Source: Rhodobiaceae bacterium
Lineage (GTDB): Bacteria; Pseudomonadota; Alphaproteobacteria; Rhizobiales; NORP267
Assembly (NCBI GenBank): GCA_020441905.1
Contig: JAGRLG010000015.1
Span: 765 to 64,764 of the forward strand
DNA length: 64,000 bases
Reading direction: 5' to 3'
Positions 28,973 to 50,954 of this stretch are shown here, one piece after another; the stretch's first letter is position 1, and every line of letters starts with the position of its first letter. The notes under the pieces were generated by a model that saw only the letters and a program-made list of their open reading frames with translations, ran no database searches and was not told the origin of the DNA. The translations under genes and the position numbers were made by a program.

Positions 28973-29439
28973 TGGCCCGTCCTCGCATTCATGGTCCGCA
29001 CAACCGCCTGATGAAGGCTGGAGAGAAACCGCGACCGATCAGCCGGCGAGAACGGTTTCGGCCCGCCGGTTATTTCGCCTGCGGAACGAAGGCTGTCCAT
29101 CAGATTCCGGGTCGCCAGCACGGCGCCGATGGTATCCGCGCCCAAAGAGCGTCCATTGGGGCCGAGGACCGGCGCGCCGGCGGCAGCGCAGCGGCTGGCA
29201 AGAGGAATATCGGCGGTGACAACGATGGTGCGCGGCCCGGCATGCTCCGATATCCAGTCATCGGCGGCATCAAGCCCGTCGCCGACCACGACCAGTTCGA
29301 CGCCGCCGCCACGCGGCACCCGCATATAGGAATTGGCGACCAGGACGACGCGCAAGCCGTGGCGCCCGGCAACGCGGTAGATCTCCTCCTTGACCGGGCA
29401 AGCATCGGCATCGACCAGGATTTCGATTTCGCCGCTCAT
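28969..29439 (-). CDS. yaiI: YaiI/YqxD (UPF0178, DUF188) family protein
   Basis: ...[11 protein letters not shown]...VVTADIPLA... aligns by eye with E. coli YaiI. Its stop overlaps the arfB start (ATGA). Confidence 0.85.
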
Positions 29440-29457
29440 TACACCCCCCCTGTCACC

Positions 29458-29535
29458 CCGATCTTCCGTTCCGATTGCCTGTGCCGATCGCCTGTGCCGA
29501 TCGCCTGTTCCGATTGCCTGCGCCGAAAGCTACTG
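29458..29535. repeat. 13-bp tandem repeat array (4 core + 2 degenerate units)
   Basis: ccgattgcctgtg / ccgatcgcctgtg / ccgatcgcctgtt / ccgattgcctgcg at 29471-29522, flanked by degenerate copies. Intergenic, between divergent yaiI and the OAT fusion gene. Confidence 0.9.
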
Positions 29536-29686
29536 CCGGGGCGGCCGCGCCGAACCATATGCCGGCCGGGGGCGCAGCGAAAGGCGGCATGCGGCCAATT
29601 CCGGGGGGCTGGCGCCGCCGGGGCTGGAGAATTCGCCACATCGGCGACGATTTCGGGCGTAAAATGGCTTTGCTGGAGCGATTGCC

Positions 29687-31816
29687 GTGAACCCGATGGA
29701 GCTGGAAAAGCGCTATTGCGCGCATAATTACGAGCCGCTGCCGGTGGTGCTGGCGCGCGGCCAGGGCGCCCATTTGTGGGATATCGCGGGGCGGCGCTAT
29801 ATCGACATGATGAGCGCCTATTCGGCGGCCAGCCATGGCCATGGCCACCCGCGCATCCTTGCCGCGCTTGCCGCCCAGACGGCCCGCCTCGCGGTGCCCT
29901 CGCGCGCCTATTTCAACGACAAGCTGGGGCCGTTCGCCGCCGAATTGTGCCGCCTCACCGGCCTTTATTCGATGCTGCCGATGAATACCGGCGCCGAGGC
30001 GGTCGAAACCGCGATCAAGGCGGCGCGGCGCTGGGCCTACCGGGTCAAGGGGGTGGCGCGAGAGAAGGCCGAGATCATCGTCGCGGCGGGCAATTTCCAC
30101 GGCCGCACCACCACCATCATCGGCTTTTCCTCCGATGGCGAATATCGCGACGATTTCGGCCCCTTCACCCCCGGCTTTCGCAGTGTGCCCTTCGGCGACA
30201 TCGCCGCGATGGAAGCGGCGATCGGCGCCAACACGGCGGCGGTGCTGATCGAGCCCATTCAGGGCGAGGCCGGCATCATCGTGCCGCCCCCCGGCTACCT
30301 CGCCGGCCTGCGCGCCCTTTGCGACGCGCGCAATGTCCTGCTCATATTCGACGAGGTGCAGTCGGGGCTGGGGCGCAGCGGCGCCTGGTTCGCCTTCGAG
30401 CATGAGGCTGCCCGGCCCGACGGGCTCATTCTCGGCAAGGCGCTGGGCGGCGGCGTGCTGCCGGTATCCGCCTTTGCCGGAACGAAGGACCTGATGGCGG
30501 TGTTCGATCCCGGCTCCCACGGCTCGACCTTTGGCGGCAATCCGCTGGCTGCCGCGGTGGCGCTGGAGGCCCTCCATGTCATTGCCGAGGAAGGGCTGGT
30601 GGAACGCAGCCGCGAGCTGGGCGCCCATATGATGGAACGGCTGCGGGCGATCGGAAGCGAAGCCCTTGGCGAAGTGCGCGGGCGGGGGCTGTGGGCCGGC
30701 GCCGAGATCAGCCCGGCGATCGCCAGCGCCCGCGAGATCTGCGAGCGGCTGCTGGACAAGGGCGTGCTGTCGAAGGAAACCCATGACAGCGTCGTGCGCA
30801 TGGCGCCGCCGCTGGTGATCGGCAGGGACGATCTCGACCGCGCCCTCGATGCCTTTGAGGACGTGCTTGGCGAGACGGTGCGGGCGCGCCGCCCGGGGGC
30901 CAGGGCGAGGAGGGCGGGCACGCCCGGGACCGCGCCCGCAGCGCGCTTCCTGATGTGCCGCCCGGAGCATTTCGAGGTGACCTATTCGATCAACCCCTGG
31001 ATGGATCCTGGCGCATGGGCGCGCGAGGATGGCGCGCTGGCCAGGCGGGCCGATGAGGAATGGCATCGGCTCCATCGCAAACTTGCGGACCTTGGCGCCC
31101 GGATCGAATTGATCGACCCCCTGCCCGGCCTGCCCGACCTGGTGTTCACCGCCAATGGCGCGGTGGTACTCGACGGCACCGCCTTGCTGGCGCGATTCCG
31201 CTATCCCCAGCGCCAGAGCGAGGAGAGGATCTTCGCGGCAGCCTTTGCGGAGCTGAGGGAGCGCGGCCTGGTCGAGCGCATCGCGACGCTGCCGGACGGC
31301 ATGCTGCTGGAGGGCGCCGGGGACTGCGTCTGGGATAGCGCGCGGCAGATGTTCTGGATGGGCCACGGACCGCGCTCAAGCAAGGCGGCGGCCGATTTCG
31401 CCGCGCGCCTGTTCGGCGTCGCGACGCAGGCCATGGAACTGGTCGATCCGCGCTTCTATCATATCGATACCGCGCTTTGCCCGCTGCCCGGCGGCGAACT
31501 GGTCTATGTTCCGCATGCCTTTTCGCCCGCCGGCCGCGCCGCCATCGCGGCGCGCACGACGCCGGACCAGCGCATCGAACTCGGCGAGGAAGATGCGAAC
31601 CGGCTGGCCGGCAATGCGGTGTGCATCGGCACCAGGCTGGTGATGTCGTCCTGCGGGCCCGGCTTGCGAAACAGGCTCGCCGCAGCGGGCTACGCGGTCG
31701 AGGAGGTGCCCCTGACCTCCTTCCTGCGCTCCGGCGGCAGCGCCTTCTGCCTGACCCTGCGCCTCGATGCCGCCAGCGCCGCGCGGGCCAGGCGCGGCGA
31801 GCTGATAACGCAATAA
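29687..31816 (+). CDS. rocD: Fusion protein: ornithine aminotransferase (RocD-like) + amidinotransferase/DDAH-superfamily domain
   Basis: Residues 1-~397 are a class III aminotransferase (PLP Lys in LILGKALGGG). A basic/Pro linker follows. Residues ~420-709 are a guanidino-modifying fold (FLMCRPEHFEVTYSINPWM, FYHIDTALCPL, GGSAFCLTL). Confidence 0.85.
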   Translation: MNPMELEKRYCAHNYEPLPVVLARGQGAHLWDIAGRRYIDMMSAYSAASHGHGHPRILAALAAQTARLAVPSRAYFNDKLGPFAAELCRLTGLYSMLPMNTGAEAVETAIKAARRWAYRVKGVAREKAEIIVAAGNFHGRTTTIIGFSSDGEYRDDFGPFTPGFRSVPFGDIAAMEAAIGANTAAVLIEPIQGEAGIIVPPPGYLAGLRALCDARNVLLIFDEVQSGLGRSGAWFAFEHEAARPDGLILGKALGGGVLPVSAFAGTKDLMAVFDPGSHGSTFGGNPLAAAVALEALHVIAEEGLVERSRELGAHMMERLRAIGSEALGEVRGRGLWAGAEISPAIASAREICERLLDKGVLSKETHDSVVRMAPPLVIGRDDLDRALDAFEDVLGETVRARRPGARARRAGTPGTAPAARFLMCRPEHFEVTYSINPWMDPGAWAREDGALARRADEEWHRLHRKLADLGARIELIDPLPGLPDLVFTANGAVVLDGTALLARFRYPQRQSEERIFAAAFAELRERGLVERIATLPDGMLLEGAGDCVWDSARQMFWMGHGPRSSKAAADFAARLFGVATQAMELVDPRFYHIDTALCPLPGGELVYVPHAFSPAGRAAIAARTTPDQRIELGEEDANRLAGNAVCIGTRLVMSSCGPGLRNRLAAAGYAVEEVPLTSFLRSGGSAFCLTLRLDAASAARARRGELITQ

Positions 31817-31893
31817 TTGGACGGTTCGTAAGCGCCAGCCAGCATGCTAGCCTTTGCGGCGAATGCGGCCCGACAGCGAGCGAGCAGGTCAAG

Positions 31894-32226
31894 ATGATTG
31901 CGGAAATGGTGATGTTCCAGCTTCCCGCCGGGATGAGCCGGGACGACGTGCTGGCGGCGGCCTATGACACGGTGCCGGGCTGGCAGGCCAATGGCGACCT
32001 GCTGCGCAAGCACTATCTGCTCGACGAAGACAACCGCACTTACGGCTTTTATCTCTGGCGCTCGCGCGAAGCGGCCGAGCGCGCCCATGGCTCCGAGTTT
32101 CGCCAGCGCGTGCGCGAGCGTTTCGGCTGCGAGCCGAGCATCAGCTATTACGACGCCTTGCTGGTGCTCGACAATCTGAACGGCGAAGTGAGCGAAGACC
32201 TGGGCGGCCCGGTTTCGGCGCCCTGA
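31894..32226 (+). CDS. Small YdhR/ABM-like (dimeric alpha-beta barrel) protein
   Basis: 110 aa. The pattern ...YGFYLWRSREAAERAH... is reminiscent of YdhR-type putative monooxygenases. Weak assignment. Confidence 0.4.
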   Translation: MIAEMVMFQLPAGMSRDDVLAAAYDTVPGWQANGDLLRKHYLLDEDNRTYGFYLWRSREAAERAHGSEFRQRVRERFGCEPSISYYDALLVLDNLNGEVSEDLGGPVSAP

Positions 32227-32347
32227 GACGGGCGCCATGGCTCCACGAATGGGCGATCTGCGTGAATTTCTGTATACGGAACAATTAATATCGTATACGA
32301 TTTTTGGTATCATTTGAGCCGGTTGTGGCGTTCAACAGAGACTGCGG

Positions 32348-33019
32348 ATGATTGTGCGGAGAGCGGACCAGATCAAGGAAACGCTGGAGCTGGAGATCGT
32401 CGGAGGCACCCTGCCCCCCGGCATGCGCCTCGACGAGCCATCGCTGGTGCGCCGGTTCGGGGTTTCCCGCACCCCGGTGCGGGAGGCGCTGCACCAGCTT
32501 GGCGCCATCGGACTGCTGGAAATGCGGAAAGGGCGCAGCCCGGTGGTCGCCGCGCTGTCGCCGCAGGATCTTATCGACGGGCTTGAAGTGCTCACCGAAC
32601 TCGAGGGGTTGAGCGGCGCCCTGGCGGCAAAGCGCGCCAGCACCAGGGAGCGCGCCGGCATTGTCCGGCTGCACAAGATCATGGCACGGGCGGCGGAACA
32701 GAACCGGATCGAGGATTATTACCACCTCGATGTCGATTTTCACGACGCCATCTATCGCGCCACTCATAACGAGCTGCTGGAGAAACAGCTGCGCTCCCTG
32801 CGTCAGCGTTTCGCGCCCTATCGGCGCAATCATTTCCTGCGCCAGGGGCGGCTCCACCAGTCCTACGAGGAACACGGACTGATCGTGGCGGCGATCGTGG
32901 AGGGCGATGCCGGGGGGGCCATGCAGGCGGCGCGCAATCACATCAACCGCAATGGCGCCGTGCTCGCCGACTTCCTGCACGACCTCACCCGCTTCGACGA
33001 GGAGTTGAAGACCGGATGA
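32348..33019 (+). CDS. GntR-family (FadR/FCD subfamily) transcriptional regulator
   Basis: Winged HTH ...LVRRFGVSRTPVREAL... with a helical FCD-like C-terminus. Confidence 0.85.
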   Translation: MIVRRADQIKETLELEIVGGTLPPGMRLDEPSLVRRFGVSRTPVREALHQLGAIGLLEMRKGRSPVVAALSPQDLIDGLEVLTELEGLSGALAAKRASTRERAGIVRLHKIMARAAEQNRIEDYYHLDVDFHDAIYRATHNELLEKQLRSLRQRFAPYRRNHFLRQGRLHQSYEEHGLIVAAIVEGDAGGAMQAARNHINRNGAVLADFLHDLTRFDEELKTG

Positions 33020-33044
33020 CCGAGCGGGCGGAAAGGCTGGCGCG

Positions 33045-34133
33045 ATGAAGATCGCGGTGCTCGGCGGCGGCAACGGGGCCTATGCGGCGGCGGCCGACCT
33101 CGCCCTGGCCGGGCACGAGGTGGCGCTGTGGCGCCGCAGCGGCACGCATTTCGCCCAGGTGCTGGAGAGCCAGACCATCGCCCTGACCGACGCCCGCGGC
33201 ACCAGGGAGGTGAGACTTTCCCTGGCCACCACGGACCTTGCCCGCGCCCTTGACGGCGCCGAACTGGTGGTGGTGCCATTGCCGGCGACGGCGCAGGAAG
33301 GGCTGGCGGGCGATCTGGCGCCGCTGCTCGCCGAGGGCCAGGTGGTGTTCCTGCCGCCGGGCACCTTTGGCGGCTATCTCATGGCCCAGGCCATGATCGA
33401 GGCGGGGAACCATGCCCGCGTCGCCTTCGCCGAAACCGGCACCCTGCCCTATCTGGCGCGCAAGCACTCGGAGCGCTCGGTGACGATATCGGTGCGCGCC
33501 ACGCGGCTGCCGACCGGGGTGCTGCCGGCCAGCGACAGTGAGCGCGCGCTAGGCGTCATTGCCCGGGCCTATCCGGCGGTCGAGCCGCTTTCGGATCTGC
33601 TGGACGGCGCCTTGATGAATGCCGGCCCGATCATTCACCCGCCCCTGATCCTGATGAATGCCGGGCCGCTGGAGCATTTCGAAGCCTGGGACATCCACAA
33701 CGAAGGCACCCAGCCCTCGATCCGCCGCGTCACCAACGCGCTCGACGCCGAGCGGGTGGCCTTGCGCGAGGCGCTGGGCTATGGCGCGCCGCATTTTCCG
33801 CTCGCCGATCATTACGACGACGAGCGCGACGAGTGGATGTATGGCGACAGCTCCCACGAAAAACTGACCGGCAGCGGCGACTGGCGCGAGAAGATCGATC
33901 TGACGACCCACCGCTATATGCGCGAGGACATCGCGCTGGGCCTGACATTCTATGTCTCTCTTGGCGAATGGGCCGGCGTCGACATGCCGGTGGCAAAAGG
34001 GCTGCTGGCCATCGCCTCGGCGGTGGTCGATGAGGACCTGCGGGTGAACGGGCGCAGCTGGGAGAGGCTGGGGCTGAGCGGTCTAAGCCGCAGCGAACTC
34101 ACCGCCCTGCTGCGCGGCGGGGTGGCACCATGA
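33045..34133 (+). CDS. NAD/NADP octopine/nopaline (opine) dehydrogenase family protein
   Basis: MKIAVLGGGNGAYAAAADLA... Rossmann fold, with length and C-terminal half typical of the family. Confidence 0.8.
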   Translation: MKIAVLGGGNGAYAAAADLALAGHEVALWRRSGTHFAQVLESQTIALTDARGTREVRLSLATTDLARALDGAELVVVPLPATAQEGLAGDLAPLLAEGQVVFLPPGTFGGYLMAQAMIEAGNHARVAFAETGTLPYLARKHSERSVTISVRATRLPTGVLPASDSERALGVIARAYPAVEPLSDLLDGALMNAGPIIHPPLILMNAGPLEHFEAWDIHNEGTQPSIRRVTNALDAERVALREALGYGAPHFPLADHYDDERDEWMYGDSSHEKLTGSGDWREKIDLTTHRYMREDIALGLTFYVSLGEWAGVDMPVAKGLLAIASAVVDEDLRVNGRSWERLGLSGLSRSELTALLRGGVAP

Positions 34134-35125
34134 CCGCCGCGGCCGCCCCCAGAAACATCGTTGCCGCCGGTGCCGGGCGAATGGGGCGCGGCATCGCCCA
34201 GGTCTTCGCCTATGCCGGCCACGGCGTGACCTTGATCGACCTCAAGGAGCGCAGCGCCAAGGCGCGCGCCGCGCTGTTCGCCGAGGCGCTGGACGAGATC
34301 AAAGCCAATCTGGGCCTGCTTGCCGGCCTCGGCCTGTTCGCGCCCCGGGTCTGCCATACCATTCTTGCCCGCATCGCCGTTGCCGGCGGCGACGAAGCGG
34401 CGGCGGCCCTCGCCGAGGCCGATATCATTTTCGAAGGGGTGCCGGAAACGCTTTCCGCCAAGGGCGAGGCGCTGGCCCTGATCGGCGCCCATGCCCGCGC
34501 CGACGCGGTGATCGCCTCGACCACCTCGACCATCCTGGTCGATGCCCTGGCCGCCCTCGTCGACCATCCCGAACGCTTCCTCAACGCCCATTGGCTCAAC
34601 CCGGCCTATCTCATCCCGCTGGTCGAAATCAGCGCCGGCAGCGCCACCGACGGCGCTGTCACCGACCGCTTCTGCGCCTTTCTTGAATCGGTGGGCAAGG
34701 TGCCGGTGCGCTGCACGGCATCCCCTGGCTATATCGTGCCGCGCATCCAGGCCATCGCCATGAACGAGGCGGCGCGGCTGGTCGAGGAAGGGGTGGCGAG
34801 CGCACAGGATGTCGACCGCGCGGTGCGCGTTGGTTTCGGCATCCGTTTTGCCGCCATGGGAATGCTGGAATTCATCGACTGGGGCGGCGGCGACACGCTC
34901 TATTACGCTTCCAACTATCTGAAAAAGGAACTCGCCGCGGACCGCTACACGGCGCCCGATATCGTCGTGCGCAACATGGAGGACGGGGCAACCGGGCTGA
35001 CCGCCGGGCGCGGGTTTTACGATTTCGCCGCCATGGACACCGCCGCCTGGCGCAAGGACAAGCTGGCGCGCATGGTCGCGCTGATCAAGGACATGGATCT
35101 TTTTCGCCCGCCAGTTGCGGATTGA
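34130..35125 (+). CDS. 3-hydroxyacyl-CoA dehydrogenase family protein
   Basis: GAGRMGRGIAQVFA NAD fold, and ...HWLNPAYLIPLVEI... central motif. Confidence 0.8.
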   Translation: MTAAAAPRNIVAAGAGRMGRGIAQVFAYAGHGVTLIDLKERSAKARAALFAEALDEIKANLGLLAGLGLFAPRVCHTILARIAVAGGDEAAAALAEADIIFEGVPETLSAKGEALALIGAHARADAVIASTTSTILVDALAALVDHPERFLNAHWLNPAYLIPLVEISAGSATDGAVTDRFCAFLESVGKVPVRCTASPGYIVPRIQAIAMNEAARLVEEGVASAQDVDRAVRVGFGIRFAAMGMLEFIDWGGGDTLYYASNYLKKELAADRYTAPDIVVRNMEDGATGLTAGRGFYDFAAMDTAAWRKDKLARMVALIKDMDLFRPPVAD

Positions 35126-35210
35126 CGCTAAATTGCTGGCATGTTGGACCGCAAGGTCCGCAGTAAATCGGCCAAACAGAGCCGATCGTTTGGATGGGAG
35201 GTTAGAAGGA

Positions 35211-36188
35211 ATGACCAAGTTTACCCGCATAGCGGCAGGGGCGGCTCTCGCCGTCGCCGTGCTGTTTTCGCCGCAGCTTCGCGCCGAGGAAGTCGTCATC
35301 TCGGCGGCCAGCGGCTTTCCCAAAGGGACCCTGTTTTCCAAGACCTTCGAGGGCTGGGTCGAGATGGTCAACGAAAAGGGCAAGGGTCTTGTCCGCATCG
35401 ACTACAAGGGCGGCGCGCCGGCCATCGGCAGCCCGTTCCAGCTGGTCAAGCAGCTCCAGGAAGGCGTGTTCAACATGGTGAGCACGACCGGCGCCTATTA
35501 CACCAACACGCTGCCGGAAGCCGACGCCTTCAAGCTGACCGAATTGTCGGTGCAGGAATTGCGCAAGAATGGCGGCTTCGACTACATGGCCAAGCTGCAT
35601 GAGGAAAAGGGCGTCCACTATCTCGGCCGCCACACCGATTTCGTGCCCTTCCACCTCTATCTCAACAAGAAGATCGACAAGCCGGACCTGACCGGCCTCA
35701 AGATCCGCGTTTCGCCGATCTACCAGAACTTCTTCCTCGCGCTTGGCGCCACTTCGGCCCAGCGCTCGACCGCGCCGGAGGTCTATTCACTGCTCGAACG
35801 CGGCGTCGTCGACGGCTACGGCTGGCCGATCAGCGGCATCTTCGACTTCTCCTGGGAGAAGGTGACCAAATACCGCGTCGATCCGGGATTCTATTCCGCC
35901 GACATCCACATCCTGCTCAACAAGGAATTCTGGGACAAGCTGTCCGACGAGCAGAAGAAATTCCTGAACGACATGATGATCGAGCAGGAATCCCACAACA
36001 GCGATGTCATCGCCTTCAACGAAGCTGAGGCAAAGCGCCAGGCGGAAGCCGGTATCGAGGTTATCAAGATGGCCGATGACAACGAGAAGAAGTGGCTCGA
36101 TACGGCCAAGGAAGCCGGCTGGGAAGGGGTGATCAAGGTCAGCCCGCAGCACGGCCCGGAGCTGCGCAAGCTGTTCACCAAGAACTGA
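35211..36188 (+). CDS. TRAP transporter substrate-binding protein (DctP family)
   Basis: Signal peptide, DctP-like sequence, SD GGGAGG upstream. Confidence 0.85.
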   Translation: MTKFTRIAAGAALAVAVLFSPQLRAEEVVISAASGFPKGTLFSKTFEGWVEMVNEKGKGLVRIDYKGGAPAIGSPFQLVKQLQEGVFNMVSTTGAYYTNTLPEADAFKLTELSVQELRKNGGFDYMAKLHEEKGVHYLGRHTDFVPFHLYLNKKIDKPDLTGLKIRVSPIYQNFFLALGATSAQRSTAPEVYSLLERGVVDGYGWPISGIFDFSWEKVTKYRVDPGFYSADIHILLNKEFWDKLSDEQKKFLNDMMIEQESHNSDVIAFNEAEAKRQAEAGIEVIKMADDNEKKWLDTAKEAGWEGVIKVSPQHGPELRKLFTKN

Positions 36189-36263
36189 GCAAGGCTCAAG
36201 GGGCGCCCCCGCGAAAGGGGCGCCCCCAATTCGCCCGCCATTTCTCTACTTTCCAGGACGGCC

Positions 36264-36791
36264 ATGCCCGAACAGTCTGCGCTTGGCGCTTTCTATGAAA
36301 AGATTCTCGATGCGACCGGAACCCTGGTCGGCCTGCTGATCGCCCTGATCGCCGTGATGATCAGCATCGAGGTGGCGATGCGCAATTTCGGCCAGGGCGG
36401 CATTTCCTGGCTCAACGAGACCATCGAGTTCGCCATCTATGCAGGCACCTTCGCCGCCGCGCCCTGGGTGCTGCATCAGGGCGCCCATATCCGCGTCGAT
36501 ATCGTGCTGACCCTGCTGCCGAGGCCGGTGGCACTGGCCGTAGAGATCCTCGCCGATCTTTCCGGGGCGGTAATCTGCCTCGCGCTGCTGTATTACGGCG
36601 GCGTCTCGGTGGCCGATGCATGGAGCGACAATACGATCCAGTACAAGAACCTGGCCTGGCCCGAATGGGCGCTGTTTGCCGTGGTTCCGCTGTTCACCGG
36701 ACTGATGGCCATTGAATTCGTGCTGCGGGCGCGCCGCGCGCTGGCGACCGGCAGCGCCGAGCGCGCCGAACCGGCAACCGAGGGCTTTTGA
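36264..36791 (+). CDS. TRAP transporter small permease (DctQ)
   Basis: 4-TM protein between the DctP and DctM genes. Confidence 0.75.
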   Translation: MPEQSALGAFYEKILDATGTLVGLLIALIAVMISIEVAMRNFGQGGISWLNETIEFAIYAGTFAAAPWVLHQGAHIRVDIVLTLLPRPVALAVEILADLSGAVICLALLYYGGVSVADAWSDNTIQYKNLAWPEWALFAVVPLFTGLMAIEFVLRARRALATGSAERAEPATEGF

Positions 36792-36792
36792 C

Positions 36793-38103
36793 ATGGGCTG
36801 GGCCGCTTCGCTGGTAATCATGCTCGGCCTGGTGATCGGCGCCATGGCCATGGGCCTGCCGGTCGCCTTCGCCTTTCTTGGCGCCAATCTTGCCGGAACG
36901 GTGATTTTTTCCGGCGGCGCCGGACTCAACCTCGCCGCCGCCCAGATCATGGAGGCGACGGCGAATTTCACCTTCGCGCCGATCCCGCTGTTTCTCCTGA
37001 TGGGCGAGATCCTGTTCCACTCCGGCGTCGCCTTCAAGGCCATCGGCGCCGTCGACCGCCTGATCGCCCGCGTGCCGGGACGGCTGTCGATCGTCGCAAT
37101 TGTCGGCGGCACCATGTTTTCCTCGCTTTCAGGCTCGACCATCGCCAATACGGCGGTGCTGGGCTCGGTGCTGCTGCCGGAAATGACCCGGCGCGGCTAC
37201 AAGCCGGTCATCGCCATGGGACCGATCATGGCGGTGGGCGGCATCGCCATGCTGATCCCGCCCTCGGCGCTGTCGGTGCTGCTGGGGAGCCTGGCCAATA
37301 TCCCGGTGTCGCAACTGCTGATCGCCGGCATCATCCCCGGCATCATGATGAGCATCCTGTTCGTCGGCTATATCCTGTGGCGCTGCACGCGCGACCCCGA
37401 TCTGGCGCCGGTCTATGAGGTGCAGGACTTCACATTGCGCGAGCGCTGGATGCCGTTCTTCATTTATGTGGCGCCGCTGTTCTCGATCTTCATCGTCGTG
37501 GTGGGCAGCATATTCTTCGGCATCGCCTCGCCGTCGGAGGCCGCTGCGCTGGGCTGCGTCGCCTCAACCGTGGCGGCGGCGTGCTATCGCTCGCTGACTT
37601 GGGCCTCGTTCATGAAGTCGGTGCGCGAGACCGCCAAGGTCACCACCATCATCATGCTGATCATTGCCGGATCGCTGACTTTTTCCCAGATCCTGGCCAT
37701 TTCCGGAGCCACCGACGGCCTGCTGCAACAGATCCAGGCGCTAGCGCTGAGTCCGCTCGGCGCGGTGCTGGTGATGCTCGCGGTGCTGCTGTTTCTCGGC
37801 GCCTTCATGGACCAGGTGTCGATGCTGCTGCTGACCCTGCCCTTTTTCCTGCCGCTGGCGGCAATCCAGGGCATCGACATGCTGTGGCTCGGCGTCTTGT
37901 TCCTGATCGCGATGGAGATCAGCCTGCTGACGCCGCCCTTCGGTCTGTTGCTCTATGTCATGCGCGGCGTCGCCTCGAAGGACATTTCGATGCGGTCGAT
38001 CTATGCCTCGGCGCTGCCGTTCATCGCCATGGAACTGGTGGCGCTGGTGCTGCTGATCGCCTTCCCGGCATTGAGCACCTGGCTGCCGCGCTGGATCGAA
38101 TAG
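36793..38103 (+). CDS. TRAP transporter large permease (DctM)
   Basis: Polytopic protein of ~436 aa in the DctM pattern. Confidence 0.9.
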   Translation: MGWAASLVIMLGLVIGAMAMGLPVAFAFLGANLAGTVIFSGGAGLNLAAAQIMEATANFTFAPIPLFLLMGEILFHSGVAFKAIGAVDRLIARVPGRLSIVAIVGGTMFSSLSGSTIANTAVLGSVLLPEMTRRGYKPVIAMGPIMAVGGIAMLIPPSALSVLLGSLANIPVSQLLIAGIIPGIMMSILFVGYILWRCTRDPDLAPVYEVQDFTLRERWMPFFIYVAPLFSIFIVVVGSIFFGIASPSEAAALGCVASTVAAACYRSLTWASFMKSVRETAKVTTIIMLIIAGSLTFSQILAISGATDGLLQQIQALALSPLGAVLVMLAVLLFLGAFMDQVSMLLLTLPFFLPLAAIQGIDMLWLGVLFLIAMEISLLTPPFGLLLYVMRGVASKDISMRSIYASALPFIAMELVALVLLIAFPALSTWLPRWIE

Positions 38104-38143
38104 AGCCGTGCCGGCGGCGGCCGGCGCAAGCAAGGGGGTGGAC

Positions 38144-39892
38144 GTGCCCGTCACAATCGATCCCATCCTGGCCGCGGTGCTACAGAAGCGGCTGAAGGCG
38201 ATCACCCGCGAGATGGGGCTTACCCTGCTGCGCACCGCCCGCTCGCCGATCCTCAACGAAGCGCGCGATTTCGTGACCGGGCTCTACGACGCCAGCGGGC
38301 GGATGCTGGAGCAGACCGAATATATTCCGGTGCTGGCCTTCGCCCTGCAACCGGTCTGCGCCCATATCGCGCAAGTATTCGCCGGCGATATCCATCCCGG
38401 CGACGTGTTCCTGCACAATGACGTCTTTTCCGGCGGCAACCAGAACAATGACGTCGCCGCCTTCAAGCCGGTGTTCCACAATGACAGGCTGGTGGCCTGG
38501 GCCGCCTGCAAGGGCCACCAGGCCGATATCGGCGGCGCGGTGGCCGGGGGCTACAACCCGGAAGCGCGCGAGGTGTGGCAGGAGGCGTTCCGGATTCCCG
38601 CGATCAAGGTGATCGAGCGCGGCAAGGTGCGGCGCGACGTGTGGAATCTGATCTTCGCCAATATCCGGCTCAGAATCGTCGAGGAGGATATCCGGGCCCA
38701 GATCGGCGGCTGCACGGTGGGCGAGCGCGCCATCCAGGCGCTGTTCGAGCGCCATGGGGCCGCAGTGATCGAGGCCCATGTCGCGCATCTGTTCGATGCC
38801 ACAGAGCGCATGGTCCGACACGAGATCGCCCAGATCCCCGACGGCGTCTATGAGGGCCGCTCCACCGCCTTCTATGACGGCATCCACGACGGCTCGCGCA
38901 TGGCGATCAACCTCAAGGTGACGGTCGCCGGCGAGGAAATCTGCTTCGACTTCACCGGCTCCGCCCCGCAAACGCAAGGCTTCGTCAACGCCCCCTATGC
39001 CGCCACCGCATCGGCGGTCATTCTCACCTTCCTGATGCTGATCAATCCCGACATTCCCCATAATGACGGGCTGACCCGCGCCATTTCCATCGTCAATCCG
39101 CAGGGCTCGTTCCTCAATGCCGCCTATCCGGCGGCAACCACCTTCGGCAATTCGCTGACCGGGCCGACATCGGACGCCATCTTCCGCGCCTTCGCCGGAG
39201 CGCTGCCGGGCATGGTCAGCGCGGGTTGGAACCGCATGCTCGGCTTTACCATCACCGGACAGGACCCGCAGCACGGCTACGAGAAATATGTCGATATCCT
39301 GTTCATCGCCCTGAAGGGCGGCTCCGGGGCGGTGAAGGGCGCCGACGGCTATGACCATATCGGCCTCATCAACTGCGCCGGCGGCATCCTGGCGCAGGAT
39401 TACGAGATGTTCGAGCTTCAGGACCCGCACCGCCTCATCCGCCACGAATATGCCACCGATTCGGCGGGCGCCGGGCGCTGGCGCGGCGGGCTCGGCATCG
39501 AGACCGAATTCGTCATCGAGGGTGAGAAGGTCATCGGCGTTGCCTTTGGCGACGGGCTGGAGGAGGAAGCGCGGGCCTTCGGCCTTTACGGCGGGCATGC
39601 CGGCTCGGCCAACCGGATCGAACTGACCGCCCCCGACGGTGCCGTGCGCCGCGCCAAGGCCAAGCAGATCCTGCGCGACATTGCCCGCGGCAGCATCTTT
39701 TTCCAGCATGCCGGCGGTGGCGGCGGCTATGGCGATCCTTTCCAGCGCCCGGCGGCCATGGTGGCGCGGGAGGTGCGCAACGGCGTGGTGAGCGCGCAAG
39801 CAGCGCGGCGCGAGTATGGCGTTGCCGTCGATCCGGCAACATGCGCCGTTGACGAGGAGGCGACGGCGGCATTGCGGAAGGGCCAGCCGTGA
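38144..39892 (+). CDS. Hydantoinase B/oxoprolinase (HyuB) family protein, no HyuA partner nearby
   Basis: N-terminus ...TIDPILAAVLQKRLKAITREM... and length are typical of HyuB. The start is uncertain (GTG 38108, 38138 or 38144). Confidence 0.85.
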   Translation: MPVTIDPILAAVLQKRLKAITREMGLTLLRTARSPILNEARDFVTGLYDASGRMLEQTEYIPVLAFALQPVCAHIAQVFAGDIHPGDVFLHNDVFSGGNQNNDVAAFKPVFHNDRLVAWAACKGHQADIGGAVAGGYNPEAREVWQEAFRIPAIKVIERGKVRRDVWNLIFANIRLRIVEEDIRAQIGGCTVGERAIQALFERHGAAVIEAHVAHLFDATERMVRHEIAQIPDGVYEGRSTAFYDGIHDGSRMAINLKVTVAGEEICFDFTGSAPQTQGFVNAPYAATASAVILTFLMLINPDIPHNDGLTRAISIVNPQGSFLNAAYPAATTFGNSLTGPTSDAIFRAFAGALPGMVSAGWNRMLGFTITGQDPQHGYEKYVDILFIALKGGSGAVKGADGYDHIGLINCAGGILAQDYEMFELQDPHRLIRHEYATDSAGAGRWRGGLGIETEFVIEGEKVIGVAFGDGLEEEARAFGLYGGHAGSANRIELTAPDGAVRRAKAKQILRDIARGSIFFQHAGGGGGYGDPFQRPAAMVAREVRNGVVSAQAARREYGVAVDPATCAVDEEATAALRKGQP

Positions 39893-40308
39893 GCAAGCCG
39901 GCCATCGACCATATCGGCGTCATCGTCGCCGACCTCGACCAGGCGCTGGCGCTGATGAAGCTGCTGTTCAAGGCCGCGCCGGCCTATGTCAAGGACCTGC
40001 CCGAGGTCGGGCTCAAGGTGGCGGCGATCGAGACTGCCAATGTCACCATCGAGCTGCTGCAATATTGCAGCGGCGGCGACAGCGCTTTCGCGCGCCAGGT
40101 CATGGGCGCGGCGCCCGGTCTCAACCACATCTCGGCCCGGGTCGACAACCTCGAGGCGGCGATGGCGGAACTGGCCGAGGCCGGTTTTGCAATCCAGCCC
40201 GGCTTTCCGCGCCAGGGCGCCCACGGCCGGGTCGCCTTTTACCAACCCGACGCGGCAACCGGCCTGCTGTTCGAGATCTGCCAGCCGGACAAGGACGTCG
40301 CGCCGTGA
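39889..40308 (+). CDS. VOC-family protein (glyoxalase / methylmalonyl-CoA-epimerase-like)
   Basis: IDHIGVIVADLDQA...IELLQ... pattern. 4-nt overlaps on both sides. Confidence 0.75.
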   Translation: MSKPAIDHIGVIVADLDQALALMKLLFKAAPAYVKDLPEVGLKVAAIETANVTIELLQYCSGGDSAFARQVMGAAPGLNHISARVDNLEAAMAELAEAGFAIQPGFPRQGAHGRVAFYQPDAATGLLFEICQPDKDVAP

Positions 40309-41681
40309 GCGGGGGCGCGGACAGGCGACTGTGGAACCCGGCGGCCGAGGCCATGAGCGCGGACGAGATGCGCGCGCTGCAACTGGCAAGGCTGAAGCGG
40401 CAACTGGCCTATAACCATGCCAATGGCCCCTTTCACCGCGAAAGATTCAAGGCGGCCGGCGCCAGGCCGGAGGATATCCACTCATTTTCCGATTTCGCGC
40501 AGCTGCCGCTGATGGACAAGGAAGCCCACCGGCAGGCACAGGCGCGCGGGCTGGAGGAGTTCGGCGATCCCTTCGCCCTGTTCGGCTGCGCGCCGCGCGA
40601 AAAGATCGTGCGCATCAACGCCACTTCCGGCACGACAGGTGAGCCGACGCTTTATGGGCTGACTGCCCATGATGTCGGCGTCGTCAACGAGATGCATGCG
40701 CGAAAATACTGGCGCGCCGGCATGCGGCCTGGCGGCGTCATGCTCCAGGCGCTTTCGCTGAGCATGTTCACCGGCGGGCTGCCCCTGAGCCAGGGCATCC
40801 AGCACATGGGGGCCTGCGTGGTGCCGGTCGGAGTGGAAGGCGGCACGGCGCGGGTGATCCAATTCGCGCGGCTGACCAAGCCCGAGGCGCTGATCGCGAC
40901 ACCGTCCTTTGCCCGCCACCTGATCGAGGAATGCGAAAAGCTCGCCGGCGTTCCGGCGCGCGCGCTCGGCATCAAACGCTTCTTTTCCGCCGGCGAGGCC
41001 GGCGGCGGCGATCCGGAAATTCGAGCCATGCTGGCCCAAGGGCTGGGGGCGCGGATCTTCGACCATACCGGCGGCGGCCACGCCTTTCACGCCATCTCCT
41101 GCGACCAGCCGCCGGGCGAATTCAAGGGCCTGCACCTGGTCTCAGAGGACCATTGCCTGCTCGAACTGGTGGACCCGGACAGCAAGGCGGGCGTCGAGAT
41201 CACCGACGGCGCGCGCGGCGAGATGGTGTGGACCTTCCTCGGCTGGGAAGGCGGCCCCTTCATGCGCTACGCCATGGGCGATGTTGTCGAGATCGCGACC
41301 GATCCCTGCCCTTGCGGGCAACCGGGGCCGCGCATCCGCATCATCGGGCGGGCCGACGACATGCTTATCGTCAAGGGGGTCAATGTCTATCCCCAGGCGA
41401 TCGCCGGCGTGATCGCCGGTTTCCGGCCCCGCATCACCGGCGCTTTTCGCATTGTGCTCGGCAAAGCCGGACCTTCGGTTTCCCCGCCGCTGCGCATCCG
41501 CCTGGAGCGCGGCGAGGCGCTGGCGGCGCAGGACCTGGGCGCGCTGGAGAAGGAAATGCTGGAGCGCTTCCGCGCCGAGCTGCACATCCGCCCGCGCCTT
41601 GAATGGACGGACCCCCGGTCGCTGCCGCGCGAGGCAATGAAGACGCGGCTGGTGGTGATCGAGGCCAGGCCGGGAGGTTAA
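40305..41681 (+). CDS. Phenylacetate-CoA ligase (PaaK)/F390-synthetase family adenylating enzyme
   Basis: ...LWNPAAEAMSADEMRALQLARLKRQL..., TSGTTGEPT, and a PaaK-like C-terminal domain. Start at GTG 40305 or ATG 40353. Confidence 0.8.
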   Translation: MSGGADRRLWNPAAEAMSADEMRALQLARLKRQLAYNHANGPFHRERFKAAGARPEDIHSFSDFAQLPLMDKEAHRQAQARGLEEFGDPFALFGCAPREKIVRINATSGTTGEPTLYGLTAHDVGVVNEMHARKYWRAGMRPGGVMLQALSLSMFTGGLPLSQGIQHMGACVVPVGVEGGTARVIQFARLTKPEALIATPSFARHLIEECEKLAGVPARALGIKRFFSAGEAGGGDPEIRAMLAQGLGARIFDHTGGGHAFHAISCDQPPGEFKGLHLVSEDHCLLELVDPDSKAGVEITDGARGEMVWTFLGWEGGPFMRYAMGDVVEIATDPCPCGQPGPRIRIIGRADDMLIVKGVNVYPQAIAGVIAGFRPRITGAFRIVLGKAGPSVSPPLRIRLERGEALAAQDLGALEKEMLERFRAELHIRPRLEWTDPRSLPREAMKTRLVVIEARPGG

Positions 41682-41684
41682 ACG

Positions 41685-41723
41685 CTATTCGGCGCCCCTA
41701 TTCGGCGCCCCTATTCAGCGCCA
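41685..41723. repeat. 13-bp tandem triplication at the 3' end of the transglutaminase-like gene
   Basis: ctattcggcgccc x2 followed by ctattcagcgcca. The third copy contains the gene's stop codon (TAG, 41711-41713, minus strand). Confidence 0.9.
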
Positions 41724-42376
41724 TGGGCCTCGGCGGCAAAATCGCCCTCGGGAATGCCGACAGCGATCAGCGCCGGGTAGTGGCGGCGGAACGAGGCCAG
41801 GATCTCGTCGGCGGGAACATCGGCATAGGTGCCGCGCTGGGCGAGATATTCCATGCGCTTGCGGCCCAGGGCATCGAAGGGCTGGAACAGGGAATCGGTC
41901 CGGCCGTCAAATTCCAGCGGCACCAGGCCGGCGCGCTCGCACAGCGCGGCGTCAAAGGCCGGCGTCGCCTTGACCCAGCGCCCCTCCAGCTTCAGATCGG
42001 TATAGGAGTGCCAATAGAAGATATTGGTCTGGACCAGATCCTGAAGGCGCTTGGAGGTGATGTGGTTCTGTACATCGGCATAGCCGGTGCGCGCGGGAAT
42101 GCCGACCGCACGTGCGGCGGCGGCGAGCAGCGCCGCCTTGCCGACGCAAAAACCGCGCCCCAGCGCCAGCACGTCGCTGGCGCGGTAGGTGCCCATGTCG
42201 GTGTAGTCGAGATAAGGCTCATAGGCGATCCGGTCGCGCACGGCGAGATAGAGCGCCAGGGCCTGCTTGAGCGGATCGCGCTCCCCGCCCACGGTTTCGC
42301 GGGCAAATTCGATCACGGCTGGATGGGCGGAATCGATATAGTCGCCGCTGGAGAGATAGTCCGGTTCCGCGTCCAT
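41711..42376 (-). CDS. Transglutaminase-like cysteine peptidase-fold protein
   Basis: ...GRGFCVGKAALLAAAARAVGIPAR...WHSYTDL... is a Cys-His core typical of transglutaminase-like domains. Confidence 0.75.
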   Translation of the reverse strand: MDAEPDYLSSGDYIDSAHPAVIEFARETVGGERDPLKQALALYLAVRDRIAYEPYLDYTDMGTYRASDVLALGRGFCVGKAALLAAAARAVGIPARTGYADVQNHITSKRLQDLVQTNIFYWHSYTDLKLEGRWVKATPAFDAALCERAGLVPLEFDGRTDSLFQPFDALGRKRMEYLAQRGTYADVPADEILASFRRHYPALIAVGIPEGDFAAEAHGAE

Positions 42377-42678
42377 GAAGTCTTCTCCTTATACGCCCAA
42401 CTCTTCGCGATCCTACCCTATTGCCGCCGCGCGGCAACCGGACGGCGCGTAAAACCAGAGCCCGTACCCATCAAAAGCGGCTGCGTCGAGCGACGTTGCA
42501 ATGACAGCTCCTTGGGGCTTTCCTAATCTTGCCGAGATTGATCGAGATAAGTCTGCGGCATGGCCGGTCTATCGCCATCCTCGACGCTGGTACAGAAGCC
42601 GAGTTCCATTTTTTCGGGCGCCGCATTGCCGTCAACGGCTTGCGCCTTGGCGGCCGGTTTGCCAGGCGGTGCTTCTCT

Positions 42679-43500
42679 TCAGGGTGCAGCAGTCAGACGC
42701 TTTAGGCCTTCCTTGCTTTCCTCCATGGACGGGTCCAGCTCGAGTGCTTTCCTGTAGTCGGAAATTGCCTTGTCCTTCTGACCCATGACCTCGTAAATGT
42801 GAGCCCGCGTATCATAGGAATCGGCGTCCTTCGCGTCCAATTCGAGCGCCTTGTTCGCATCGGGCAAGCCCTGCTCAGCCTTGCCCCATTTGAAGTAGCT
42901 CCAGGCACGATTATTGTAGGCGTCAGGATCCTTCGGGTTGAGCTTGATGGCTTTGTCATAGTCTGCGATGGCGCGGTCATATTCACCCTTTTCGCGGTAG
43001 GCCAAGCCGCGGTTGTAATAGGCGTCGGCGTCATCCGGGTCGAGCTTGATGGCTTTGTCATAGTCGGCAATGGCGCGGTCATACTCACCCTTATCGTCGT
43101 AGGTCATGCCGCGGTTGAAATAGGCGTCGGCATCCTTCGGGTCGAGTTTGATCGCCCGATCATAGTCGGCGATGGCGTGGTCATAGTCGCCCTTGTCGCC
43201 GTAGGCCAGGCCGCGGTTGAAGTAGGCTTTGGCATCCTTCGGGTCGAGCTTGATGGCTTTGTCATAGTCGGCGATGGCGCGATCATAATCACCCTTTTGG
43301 CGGTAGGCTATGCCGCGGTTGTTGTAGGCAACGGAACGGTCATAATTGTCGAGCTTTCCAGACTTCAGCAGGCGTGTACACGCGGATATGACGGCATCAG
43401 CATCATCGCCCTCGCACAAGTTCCAAAGCTTCTCGCTTTGGGCCACAGCTTGTGCCGGTGCTGATAGCAGCAAGAGAGAAATCACCAGAATTCTGAACAT
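42679..43500 (-). CDS. Secreted tetratricopeptide (TPR) repeat protein
   Basis: Signal MFRILVISLLLLSAPAQAVA, then ~7 TPRs, four of them near-identical (…YDRAIADYDKAIKLDPKDADAYFNRG…). Confidence 0.85.
   Translation of the reverse strand: MFRILVISLLLLSAPAQAVAQSEKLWNLCEGDDADAVISACTRLLKSGKLDNYDRSVAYNNRGIAYRQKGDYDRAIADYDKAIKLDPKDAKAYFNRGLAYGDKGDYDHAIADYDRAIKLDPKDADAYFNRGMTYDDKGEYDRAIADYDKAIKLDPDDADAYYNRGLAYREKGEYDRAIADYDKAIKLNPKDPDAYNNRAWSYFKWGKAEQGLPDANKALELDAKDADSYDTRAHIYEVMGQKDKAISDYRKALELDPSMEESKEGLKRLTAAP
42901..43335. repeat. ~102-bp tandem coding repeats (TPR units) inside the TPR gene
   Basis: The motif ggctttgtcatagtc...ggcgcggtcata recurs at ~42950, 43052, 43154 and 43256. Confidence 0.85.
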
Positions 43501-43815
43501 GATAGCCGCCCCAGTTTTCAGACACGCCGCCAATTGGCCGGAAGCCATGACCTCAAGAACCTTCGACAAAATGCCGGGCAGCAATGCGCCGCAGGATAAT
43601 ATCCTAGCTGGTATTACTACGATCGGGGGGAAGATTCAGCGACGCAGATATGGGGGAATGACAGCCGATGGACCGATGCGGATCGAACCGCGGGCCAGAG
43701 CCACAATTCAAGCTTCAAGAGGAGCCTCGGCCATTCGATCCGCCAGACCGCTGCGGCCCGCACGCGACTTCACAAACCGCTTTTGCCGCTGGTCGCGTGT
43801 CTACAAGTCCTCGTC

Positions 43816-44538
43816 CTAGCCTTCGATGAAGCGGTAATACCCTTGCGCGCGAAGCTTGCAGGCCGGGCAGGCGCCGCAGCCATGGCCCCAGTCGTGGCGC
43901 TCGCCGCGGGTGCCGAGATAGCAGGTATGGCTGTCCTTTACGATGAGGTCGACCAGGGCCCGGCCGCCGAGATCCAGCGCCATTTGCCACGCGCCGGCCT
44001 TGTCGATCCACATCAACGGGGTTTCCAGGACGAAGCGGGTTTCCATGCCGAGATTGAGCGCCACCTGGAGAGCCTTGATGGTGTCGTCGCGGCAATCGGG
44101 ATAGCCGGAGAAATCGGTTTCGCACATGCCGCCGACGATATGGCGCAGGCCGCGGCGATAGGCCAGCGCGGCGGCGAAGGTCAAAAAGACGATGTTGCGC
44201 CCCGGAACGAAGGTGTTGGGCAAGCCGTGTTCGCCGATCTCGATCTCGACCTGGCGGGTCAGCGCGGTATCGGAAACCTCGCTCAAAGCGCCCAGAGCGA
44301 GGGTGTGGTCCTCACCGAGACGCGCCGCCCAGCTAGCCTTGAGCGCCGAAATTCCGGAGCGCAGTTTCGCCCGGCAGTCCAGTTCGACCCGGTGCCGCTG
44401 GCCATAATCGAAACCCAGGGTTTCGACCCGGGAATGGCGCTCCAGCGCCCAGGCCAGGCAGGTGGTGGAATCCTGGCCGCCGGAAAACAGCACCAGCGCG
44501 CCGTCACCAGCGCTATCGGCTTGCGGACGGGCCATCAT
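43816..44538 (-). CDS. queC: 7-cyano-7-deazaguanine synthase QueC
   Basis: [14 protein letters not shown]-loop and C-terminal Zn cysteines [10 protein letters not shown]. Confidence 0.9.
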
Positions 44539-44895
44539 CTAGCGGCCGTCATATTCGACCCGGCACATATCCGTCTCGTGAAGGACTACCTTCGACAGCA
44601 GCGGCAAGGCCGGCGCGGCGCGCCGCCACACCCAGACGGCGATGTTTTCCGCCGTCGGGTTTTCCAGTCCCTCGACCTCATTGAGGATCTGATGGTCGAG
44701 GGTTTCCAGCAGGGGCGCGAAGACATGCTCGACGTCAAAGAAATCGACGACAAGGCCGCTGGCCGGATCGACATCGCCCTCCAGCTCCAGCTCGATGCGG
44801 TAGGAATGACCATGGATGCGATGGCAGCGATGGGTTTGGGGAACCCTGGGCAGGCGGTGCGCCGCCTCGAAGGTGAATGCCTGGACAATCTTCAT
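44539..44895 (-). CDS. queD: 6-carboxy-5,6,7,8-tetrahydropterin synthase QueD
   Basis: FEAAHRLP...CHRIHGHSY motif. Abuts queC. Confidence 0.9.
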   Translation of the reverse strand: MKIVQAFTFEAAHRLPRVPQTHRCHRIHGHSYRIELELEGDVDPASGLVVDFFDVEHVFAPLLETLDHQILNEVEGLENPTAENIAVWVWRRAAPALPLLSKVVLHETDMCRVEYDGR

Positions 44896-49788: not shown

Positions 49789-49792
49789 GGCT

Positions 49793-50950: not shown

Positions 50951-50954
50951 CTGT

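Follow-up and report, generated by a model that had tools for sequence, protein, structure and literature searches.

Nine co-directional genes at positions 32348-41681 of a 64-kb stretch of Rhodobiaceae DNA (contig JAGRLG010000015.1; the whole stretch is called the window below) form, we conclude with fairly high confidence, a single CoA-dependent catabolic operon, which probably serves auxin-related breakdown by an undescribed route. The locus combines three blocks that are conserved elsewhere: a hydantoinase-B-like protein (HyuB) with a vicinal oxygen chelate (VOC) protein and a PaaK-like ligase; an opine-dehydrogenase-family protein (OpDH) paired with a 3-hydroxyacyl-CoA-dehydrogenase-family protein (HADH); and a tripartite ATP-independent periplasmic (TRAP) transporter. 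Relatives of the first two blocks lie repeatedly beside genes of the anaerobic auxin (iaa) type, and relatives of the second also beside genes of the aerobic auxin (iac) type. Tentatively, we read the whole as a GntR-controlled operon by which a lactam-bearing aromatic acid, probably an auxin-related indolic one, is taken up and degraded via CoA esters.

Three conserved blocks in one operon-like locus

Open reading frame (ORF) calls, Pfam and NCBIfam delineated the following genes (lengths in amino acids, aa).

32348-33019, + strand: GntR/FCD regulator, 223 aa; Pfam GntR 56.6 bits, FCD 93.5 bits
33045-34133, + strand: OpDH, opine-dehydrogenase-family NAD(P) oxidoreductase, 362 aa; Pfam Octopine_DH (PF02317) 104.5 bits, cut-off 30; translationally coupled to HADH
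34130-35125, + strand: HADH, 3-hydroxyacyl-CoA-dehydrogenase family, 331 aa; 3HCDH_N and 3HCDH domains
35211-36188, + strand: DctP, TRAP solute-binding subunit, 325 aa (also 325 aa in L001), signal peptide; Pfam DctP; GGGAGG Shine-Dalgarno sequence before the ATG
36264-36791, + strand: DctQ, TRAP small membrane subunit, 175 aa; Pfam DctQ 81 bits
36793-38103, + strand: DctM, TRAP large membrane subunit, 436 aa; Pfam DctM 244.8 bits, TIGR00786 306.8 bits against a cut-off of 268
38108-39892, + strand: HyuB, Hydantoinase-B/oxoprolinase-family subunit, 594 aa; Pfam Hydantoinase_B 493 bits
39889-40308, + strand: VOC-fold protein, 139 aa; Glyoxalase_4 57.9 bits; translationally coupled to HyuB and the ligase
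40305-41681, + strand: PaaK-type adenylate-forming acyl-CoA ligase, 458 aa; AMP-binding_C_2; GTG start, alternative ATG at 40353

From gntR to the ligase gene, the spacings are +25, -4, +85, +75, +1, +4, -4 and -4 nt, and the same nine genes were called independently on metagenome contigs of the same organism. These coordinates and spacings agree with an earlier note on this DNA, which had described nine genes on one strand with 4-nt overlaps or gaps of at most 85 nt, and Pfam and NCBIfam agree with every gene label it gave. The operon-like layout that it proposed is likewise borne out by the spacings, a single promoter-like site and the lack of an intergenic terminator.

Neighborhoods were read by tblastn with the window proteins together with ORFs filtered by third-codon-position GC (GC3), the DNA being high in GC; homologous neighborhoods in other genomes or metagenome contigs are designated L plus a number. 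Scanning an alignment of HyuB against one genome per species placed relatives at 251 sites across Burkholderiales, Alphaproteobacteria and Desulfobacterota, almost all in uncultured organisms, making the HyuB module a widespread one. We analyzed the best 80, all from metagenome-assembled genomes (MAGs) of these three groups at 68-75% identity, and counted neighbors only over sufficiently long contigs. The VOC gene lies directly 3' of HyuB at 69 of 79 loci, and a gene for the companion subunit HyuA directly 5' at 64 of 68. A PaaK-type ligase accompanies HyuB at 53 of 68 loci, a conserved short-chain dehydrogenase/reductase (SDR) at 38 of 63 and a TRAP transporter at 16 of 80; OpDH (6/80) and HADH (7/80) are rarer. 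These counts define the module core as (HyuA)-HyuB-VOC-ligase(-SDR). The exact nine-gene order was not found outside contigs of this organism and its parts are conserved separately, so the window operon appears to be a lineage-specific assembly of the three blocks. The earlier note had called the operon an orphan and suggested gene-neighborhood conservation as a check. For the complete order, which is unique to the organism, conservation fails; the three blocks recur elsewhere and repeatedly co-occur, and 'orphan' is therefore an overstatement.

The window layout equals that of Desulfobacterales (GntR-TRAP-HyuA-HyuB-VOC-ligase) minus HyuA and plus OpDH-HADH. We rejected orthology of the window GntR and TRAP proteins with those of Desulfobacterales, as DctP is ~33% identical and GntR gave no match. 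The closest HyuB relative, in L007 (77%), has a PF04199 'cyclase' protein, a major facilitator superfamily (MFS) transporter and amidases alongside; PF04199 comprises kynurenine formamidase and isatin hydrolase. At L145, a DDE transposase gene (8150-9514) lies between the VOC and ligase genes of an otherwise intact cluster.

HyuB and the hydantoinase-like enzymes of iaa-type operons

The window HyuB matches PF02538 over its full length (profile positions 1-519 of 519). Its best structural match is the beta subunit of caprolactamase (CapB; 6yra_B, 349 bits), with 264 bits for the fused N-methylhydantoinase, 120 bits for acetophenone carboxylase and 68 bits for acetone carboxylase. The metal site of CapB comprises D41, H99, D102 and H124 (PMC8453981). 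Aligned with these are D54, Q112, D115 and H137 of the window HyuB, which departs from the canonical Asp-His-Asp-His site by the replacement of His99 with Gln112 and keeps the other three ligands. This Gln is invariant across the window HyuB family and forms part of a 'GNQNND' motif common to the window HyuB, the HyuB of L100 and the second HyuB of L058; the metal-binding His is kept in CapB, in the HyuB of Azoarcus sp. KH32C and in distant HyuB paralogs of L031 and L074. In Azoarcus KH32C the locus, which is plasmid-borne, consists of an ordinary HyuBA pair plus a permease.

The usual partner of a HyuB-type subunit is the ATP-binding HyuA. A tblastn search of the whole 64-kb window with the HyuA of a related locus found none (best E = 1.1), and the partner A subunit (Hydant_A_N plus Hydantoinase_A) that characterizes HyuAB enzymes is thus absent from these 64 kb. 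HyuA is also missing beside HyuB in five alphaproteobacterial loci (L007, L055, L066, L068 and L071). Together with the window, these six species-level loci make up two neighboring clades of the HyuB tree, (window, L007, L071) and (L066, L055, L068), and all six keep VOC and ligase intact. The genes 5' of the HyuA-less HyuBs encode DctM, an amidase, a GntR/UTRA regulator, a CHASE2 cyclase or an HpcH lyase; as these are mutually unrelated, we rejected the notion of another upstream gene standing in for HyuA.

With HyuA found so regularly 5' of HyuB elsewhere, its loss could have turned HyuB, perhaps along with the entire 3' half of the cluster, into non-functional remnants. We regard such degeneration as highly improbable, given that HyuB is complete and free of frameshifts, that its codon-position GC is gene-like (GC3 of 0.85) and that all six HyuA-less species, in two clades, have held on to the HyuB-VOC-ligase triad. 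HyuA-less HyuBs are ~70% identical to those of HyuA-bearing loci, compared with 75% among the latter. A signature of relaxed selection was sought in the HyuA-less HyuBs and rejected, S31A being the sole substitution common to all six. This retained identity and the lone shared substitution point to constraint on the HyuA-less HyuBs, which either rely on a HyuA gene located elsewhere or function by themselves.

CapAB, the HyuAB N-methylhydantoinase and 5-oxoprolinase are the nearest known systems, with CapB as the best, full-length structural relative and Asp, Asp and His conserved. The window differs from them by the lack of an A (ATPase) subunit and by Gln112 in place of His99, and the window-type HyuB gene further differs in its constant coupling to VOC and its usual coupling to a CoA ligase gene.

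The iaa operon of Aromatoleum aromaticum and A. evansii serves anaerobic indoleacetate degradation, as reported in work by Ebenau-Jehle (2012) and Schuhle (2016, 2021). To our knowledge, the hydantoinase-like step of this pathway has never been shown biochemically. The gene list iaaA-R and the enzymes are described in PMC8360864 and PMC9613470, and a GGG motif replacing YEG is the hallmark of the benzylmalonyl-CoA dehydrogenase IaaF (PMC8360864), an acyl-CoA dehydrogenase (ACAD). We judged orthology to IaaB, IaaC and IaaE via iaa-type metagenome operons rather than Aromatoleum reference sequences. Two such operons, L099 and L100, were found through an IaaL-like CoA transferase. L099 runs GntR, thiolase, ligase, ACAD, B12-binding subunit, mutase, FAD/Fer2/Mo subunits, CoA transferase, V4R protein, binding protein, ATP-binding cassette (ABC) genes and enoyl-CoA hydratase (ECH)/HADH; L100 begins with HyuA, HyuB, ACAD, B12-binding subunit and mutase and continues with the same gene run. 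Both orders fit the iaaA-R list and the enzymes described for it. The iaa-type operon of L099 (1-21191), which has a GGG ACAD, lacks any hydantoinase-like genes; in some carriers the lactam-opening step is evidently not needed or is specified at another site.

At 58% identity to the HyuB of L100, and with the Q-N-N-D motif in common, the window HyuB belongs to a family that appears to be sister to the hydantoinase-like enzyme of iaa-type operons. Both types coexist in L058 (CP070753.1, a Burkholderiales MAG chromosome; 7860-21547), where HyuA-HyuB-VOC-ligase-SDR-thiolase is followed by HyuA' (52%)-HyuB' (58%)-GGG ACAD and both HyuBs carry Q-N-N-D. Because they lie side by side, the two types are coexisting paralogues with apparently separate jobs; the window-type HyuB is not simply 'the' iaa enzyme. 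GGG-for-YEG ACADs adjoin sister modules in 10 loci, including L008, L029, L030, L036, L038, L056, L058, L076 and L082, and in L008 the ACAD (72-74%), thiolase (72%) and ECH/HADH (65%) are close to those of L099 and L100. The iaa-type cluster of L093 encloses HyuA-HyuB-VOC-SDR and OpDH-HADH; it further encodes a Mo-hydroxylase of three subunits, a B12 mutase, a V4R protein, an ABC system and a CoA transferase of family III. Homologues of this CoA transferase (80-86% identity) are annotated by JGI as 'phenylsuccinyl-CoA transferase', the reaction that IaaL catalyzes. A PhdYeFM/PIN toxin-antitoxin pair (13005-13569) sits between SDR and HADH inside the L093 catabolic cluster.

The window shares with the iaa operon a hydantoinase-like enzyme, an acyl-CoA ligase, a GntR-type regulator and periplasmic binding-protein-dependent uptake. 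It differs in several respects. Of the hydantoinase-like A and B subunits, B alone is present. In the 64-kb window, tblastn with the three L093 subunits found no Mo-hydroxylase, the L093 mutase and CoA_transf_3 protein gave no match, and any ACAD, the IaaF-type GGG enzyme included, a hydratase and a thiolase are likewise missing. The window ligase is of PaaK type, unrelated to the FadD-type ligase of L099 and L100; uptake relies on TRAP in place of ABC proteins; and VOC, OpDH and HADH are extras of the window. The link to auxin-related chemistry suggests concrete substrates for the HyuB module, and a sister family that shares the unusual metal site and has natural ATPase-less variants offers a tractable way into the anaerobic auxin step.

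The HyuAB superfamily also includes ketone carboxylases, and HyuB could instead act like acetone or acetophenone carboxylase, by ATP-dependent enol activation or carboxylation with no lactam involved. The product would be a substituted malonyl-CoA or beta-ketoacyl-CoA, to be handled by the VOC epimerase and an IaaF-type ACAD or thiolase. Gln in place of His at the metal site suggests that the chemistry has changed, SDR genes are frequent at HyuB loci, and L008 comprises HyuA-HyuB-VOC-ligase-thiolase-GGG ACAD-SDR-ECH/HADH; as mutase and Mo-hydroxylase are absent there, its 2-carboxyacyl-CoA must arise in another way. Even so, we consider a keto-acid route decidedly unlikely. HyuB scores far nearer caprolactamase and N-methylhydantoinase than either carboxylase, its length fits hydrolase subunits and not carboxylase subunits of 684-776 aa, a gamma-type small subunit is absent and the window has no HyuA for an ATP-dependent step.

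A further possibility, which we likewise rate as improbable, is that the HyuB-VOC-ligase triad forms the core of an undescribed O2-independent route for oxindole-type auxin catabolites (for example, 2-oxindole-3-acetate or dioxindole-3-acetate) or related lactam acids. In the HyuA-less alphaproteobacterial lineages, HyuB would then act without the ATPase subunit, its ring opening driven by the ligase and the CoA thioester. If so, the Q-N-N-D metal site would mark a new functional class in the hydantoinase/oxoprolinase superfamily.

The OpDH-HADH pair beside auxin genes

OpDH combines an Octopine_DH helical domain with an N-terminal Rossmann fold. Its nearest structure is N-(1-D-carboxyethyl)-L-norvaline dehydrogenase (CENDH; 1bg6), aligned over the full length at 137 bits. 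H198, R290 and D295 align with H202, R292 and D297 of 1bg6, of which we take His202 and Asp297 to be the catalytic pair and Arg292 to bind a carboxylate. OpDH differs from CENDH by its 137-bit score, its constant HADH-family partner gene and its aromatic or CoA gene contexts, and its subfamily is not known to act on opines. The partner exceeds the cut-off of NCBIfam PRK08269 (471.6 against 427 bits).

A reverse scan from OpDH in metagenomes yielded 44 loci. HADH follows OpDH in nearly all of them, which makes OpDH-HADH a conserved pair; the commonest context is OprD porin-MFS-AraC-OpDH-HADH. The pair is followed or flanked by TRAP genes in L103, L131, L042 and the window, and a separate amidohydrolase adjoins OpDH-HADH-TRAP in L103. 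OpDH adjoins FadD-like ligase genes of iaa type in L101, L132 and L140, their products sharing 54% identity with the L099 and L100 ligases. IorA/IorB-like genes (POR_N, TPP_C and Fer4) adjoin OpDH-HADH in L036 and L038, both without the ligase. Burkholderia cenocepacia has OpDH (67%) and HADH (54%) with AraC, MFS, LysR, a FadD-type ligase and a CoA transferase, and its ACAD in this neighborhood has a deviant 'LTG' motif.

None of the 44 OpDH loci has HyuB, VOC or a PaaK-type ligase nearby, and few HyuB loci have OpDH or HADH. The window could accordingly be a mosaic serving no common pathway, with a self-contained OpDH-HADH-TRAP unit and an unrelated HyuB-VOC-ligase unit co-transcribed by chance in this lineage; OpDH-HADH-TRAP occurs without HyuB in L131 and, as far as the contig reaches, in L103. 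We consider this unlikely. The HyuB modules adjoining OpDH-HADH come from no fewer than four distinct clades of HyuB, and the arrangements differ (L013, L034, L036, L038 and L039; L042; L067; and the window); this argues for a functional link of HyuB with OpDH-HADH, though not a strong one. Each block is independently associated with iaa-type genes, and only 4 nt separate dctM from hyuB in the window.

Connection to the aerobic route comes from six low-GC Acinetobacter-like loci (L116, L119, L122, L124, L126 and L135; ~10001-20200 in 21-kb loci), in which MFS-AraC-OpDH-HADH lies directly beside an iac-type cluster of, in order, MarR, amidase, ACAD-like oxygenase, Rieske alpha and beta, SDR, ferredoxin reductase and flavin reductase. 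The aerobic iac cluster is tabulated in PMC11676955, and the loci match it in composition, order and most protein sizes, Rieske alpha and flavin reductase being larger. The window resembles the iac cluster (Pseudomonas putida 1290, Acinetobacter and Paraburkholderia) only through this adjacency of OpDH-HADH and contains zero iac enzymes: by Pfam, no architecture of the IacA oxygenase, IacCD Rieske or IacE-IacH proteins occurs in the nine genes or the 20 other annotated ORFs. Our literature searches found no paper linking OpDH with iac, nor any on OpDH-HADH beside an iac cluster in Acinetobacter-like contigs. As the pair adjoins both iac-type and iaa-type genes, it may act on a shared auxin-derived compound omitted from pathway schemes and may be a bridge between the aerobic and anaerobic-type auxin routes.

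The earlier note had instead put the emphasis on opines. OpDH would cleave the secondary amine of an N-(carboxyalkyl) amino acid and the remaining enzymes would process a fragment as its CoA ester. OpDH keeps the residues aligned with the catalytic His, Arg and Asp of CENDH, TRAP gives way in L067 to a Dpp-type (SBP_bac_5) ABC transporter, a gene fusing arginine dihydrolase with ornithine aminotransferase comes shortly before the operon and HyuAB-type lactamases reportedly act on lactam opines in Agrobacterium. Nevertheless, an opine route is very unlikely. OpDH is dispensable to the core module and absent from ~90% of HyuB loci, every genomic association observed is with an aromatic or indole pathway and none with an opine region, and the closest TRAP structure is not of amino-acid or opine type. 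No plasmid carried this HyuB family; in a protein search of a plasmid collection, every HyuB match was below 40% identity. What persists of the earlier interpretation is the CoA-dependent catabolism of an imported organic acid, with 'lactams' among its suggested substrates. Its opine emphasis fares poorly, as OpDH-HADH occurs with only 6-7 of 80 HyuB modules and the tight core is HyuB-VOC-ligase, and it had missed the lack of HyuA, the sister relationship of HyuB to the iaa-type enzyme and the position of OpDH-HADH beside iac- and iaa-type genes.

Proposed pathway, regulation and neighboring genes

For the auxin-related operon proposed here, import of an aromatic, probably indolic, carboxylate by the TRAP transporter would come first. 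DctP, DctQ and DctM constitute a complete, adjacent system; the nearest structure to the window DctP is 4mnc/4mni (286 bits, ~48% identity; the next structure scores 63 bits), and the DctP of the Desulfobacterales-type L095 is also nearest to 4mnc (168 bits). The 4mnc structure is reportedly that of Polaromonas Bpro_4736 with benzoyl formate bound, which we count, provisionally, in favor of the model. OpDH and HADH would then carry out two NAD-dependent redox steps on the imported acid or its precursor. Third, the PaaK-type ligase would make the CoA thioester. This ligase scores below the PaaK equivalog cut-offs (TIGR02155, 209.6 against 646.3 bits; NF041878, 211.8 against 700) and apparently belongs to the wider PaaK-like family only; it has the same fold and family (AMP-binding plus AMP-binding_C_2) as PaaK and the 2-hydroxyisobutyryl-CoA synthetase HCL and is set apart from PaaK by a score far under those cut-offs. 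In a fourth step, the iaa-related HyuB would open or otherwise transform an oxindole- or lactam-type cyclic amide, alone or with a HyuA encoded elsewhere. Lastly, VOC would set the configuration at the carbon beside the thioester for downstream enzymes encoded elsewhere. With 71.2 bits against TIGR03081 (methylmalonyl-CoA epimerase; cut-off 114.95), VOC is epimerase-like and not an equivalog, and it scores 47.6 bits against the human methylmalonyl-CoA epimerase structure in the PDB. IaaF is enantiospecific and methylmalonyl-CoA epimerase racemizes benzylmalonyl-CoA (PMC8360864), which together suggest a natural role for VOC. The window cluster is set apart from the iaa and iac clusters, canonical HyuAB enzymes and the PaaK and methylmalonyl-CoA epimerase equivalogs, proving a member of none of them.

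Several observations weigh against this model and keep the complete scheme, aromatic or indolic substrate included, a tentative one. Regarding the module itself, HyuA is missing from the window, and the downstream iaa enzymes listed above are absent too, leaving an aromatic route incomplete within 64 kb. Minimal loci exist, namely GntR-TRAP-HyuA-HyuB-VOC-ligase in L095 and TRAP-HyuA-HyuB-VOC-ligase in L145, the latter in a 3.98-Mb genome. The Rhodospirillaceae HyuB-VOC-ligase genes have an enoyl-CoA hydratase, an HpcH-type lyase, a 2-oxoglutarate oxygenase and a GlcD-like oxidase as neighbors, a setting that would suit an aliphatic acid. The ligase is equally near PaaK (2y4o, 196 bits) and 2-hydroxyisobutyryl-CoA synthetase (6hdw, 195 bits), and transporters vary among HyuB-module loci (TRAP, Liv-type ABC, Dpp-type ABC and TctC). 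As for OpDH-HADH, most loci have no auxin genes nearby, and the iac association is confined to six loci of one genus-level group, whose OpDHs are 82-98% identical to one another. Our literature search found no paper on the HyuB-VOC-ligase module and none giving a substrate to any member.

Three further features bear on transcription.

32285-32313, + strand: promoter-like site TTAATA-17-TATCAT, 5' of gntR; the sole promoter-like site on the strand for the operon
32268-32281 and 32287-32304, + strand: two palindromes centered on GTATAC, overlapping the promoter-like site (combined feature 32268..32313)
36200-36226, + strand: GC-rich perfect hairpin GGGGCGCCCC-7 nt-GGGGCGCCCC in the dctP-dctQ gap, each arm itself palindromic

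A single copy of the pattern TNGTATACNA is present in the 64 kb; the expected number is 0.07. FadR-type GntR operators usually have GT-N-AC cores, and by analogy the GTATAC palindromes are candidate operators of the GntR/FCD regulator, which scored below the cut-off of every NCBIfam equivalog. No terminator-like sites occur in the intergenic gaps of the operon, and an Rfam scan of 29000-45000 found no RNA family. With one promoter-like site, overlapping palindromes and no intergenic terminators, a single autoregulated transcript of the nine genes is plausible. The dctP-dctQ hairpin might serve mRNA stabilization or attenuation after dctP.

The surrounding window DNA is ordinary chromosome of a high-GC proteobacterium (nirB, formate/nitrite transporter, queCD, purU and proBA), and a DNA search of the plasmid collection returned merely short matches within single genes. 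Just upstream on the same strand, a single 709-aa ORF (29687-31816, +) joins two domains: residues 10-394 form a class-III aminotransferase of ornithine/acetylornithine type, and residues about 414-700 resemble arginine dihydrolase/DDAH. Gene calls on independent metagenome contigs likewise treat the fusion as one gene. Between this fusion gene and the operon lies a 110-aa ORF (31894-32226) with no Pfam match. About 7 kb from the operon and its 4mnc-like DctP, 48907-53162 (-) encodes a 2-oxoacid:ferredoxin oxidoreductase set of alpha (POR_N and PFOR_II) and beta (TPP_enzyme_C) subunits and a GltD-like flavoprotein with Fer4 domains, a make-up resembling phenylglyoxylate or 2-oxoglutarate:acceptor oxidoreductases of aromatic degraders; beside it are a LysR gene (53432-54493, -) and one for a fused DctQM-like protein (54514-56457, +). 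Finally, the window encodes a 2,4-dienoyl-CoA-reductase-like enzyme with Oxidored_FMN and Pyr_redox_2 domains (5613-8108, +). It is 69% identical to the product of a gene in L039 (14290-16245) directly 3' of HyuA-HyuB-VOC-ligase-SDR, and a similar gene ends the iaa-type operon of L099.

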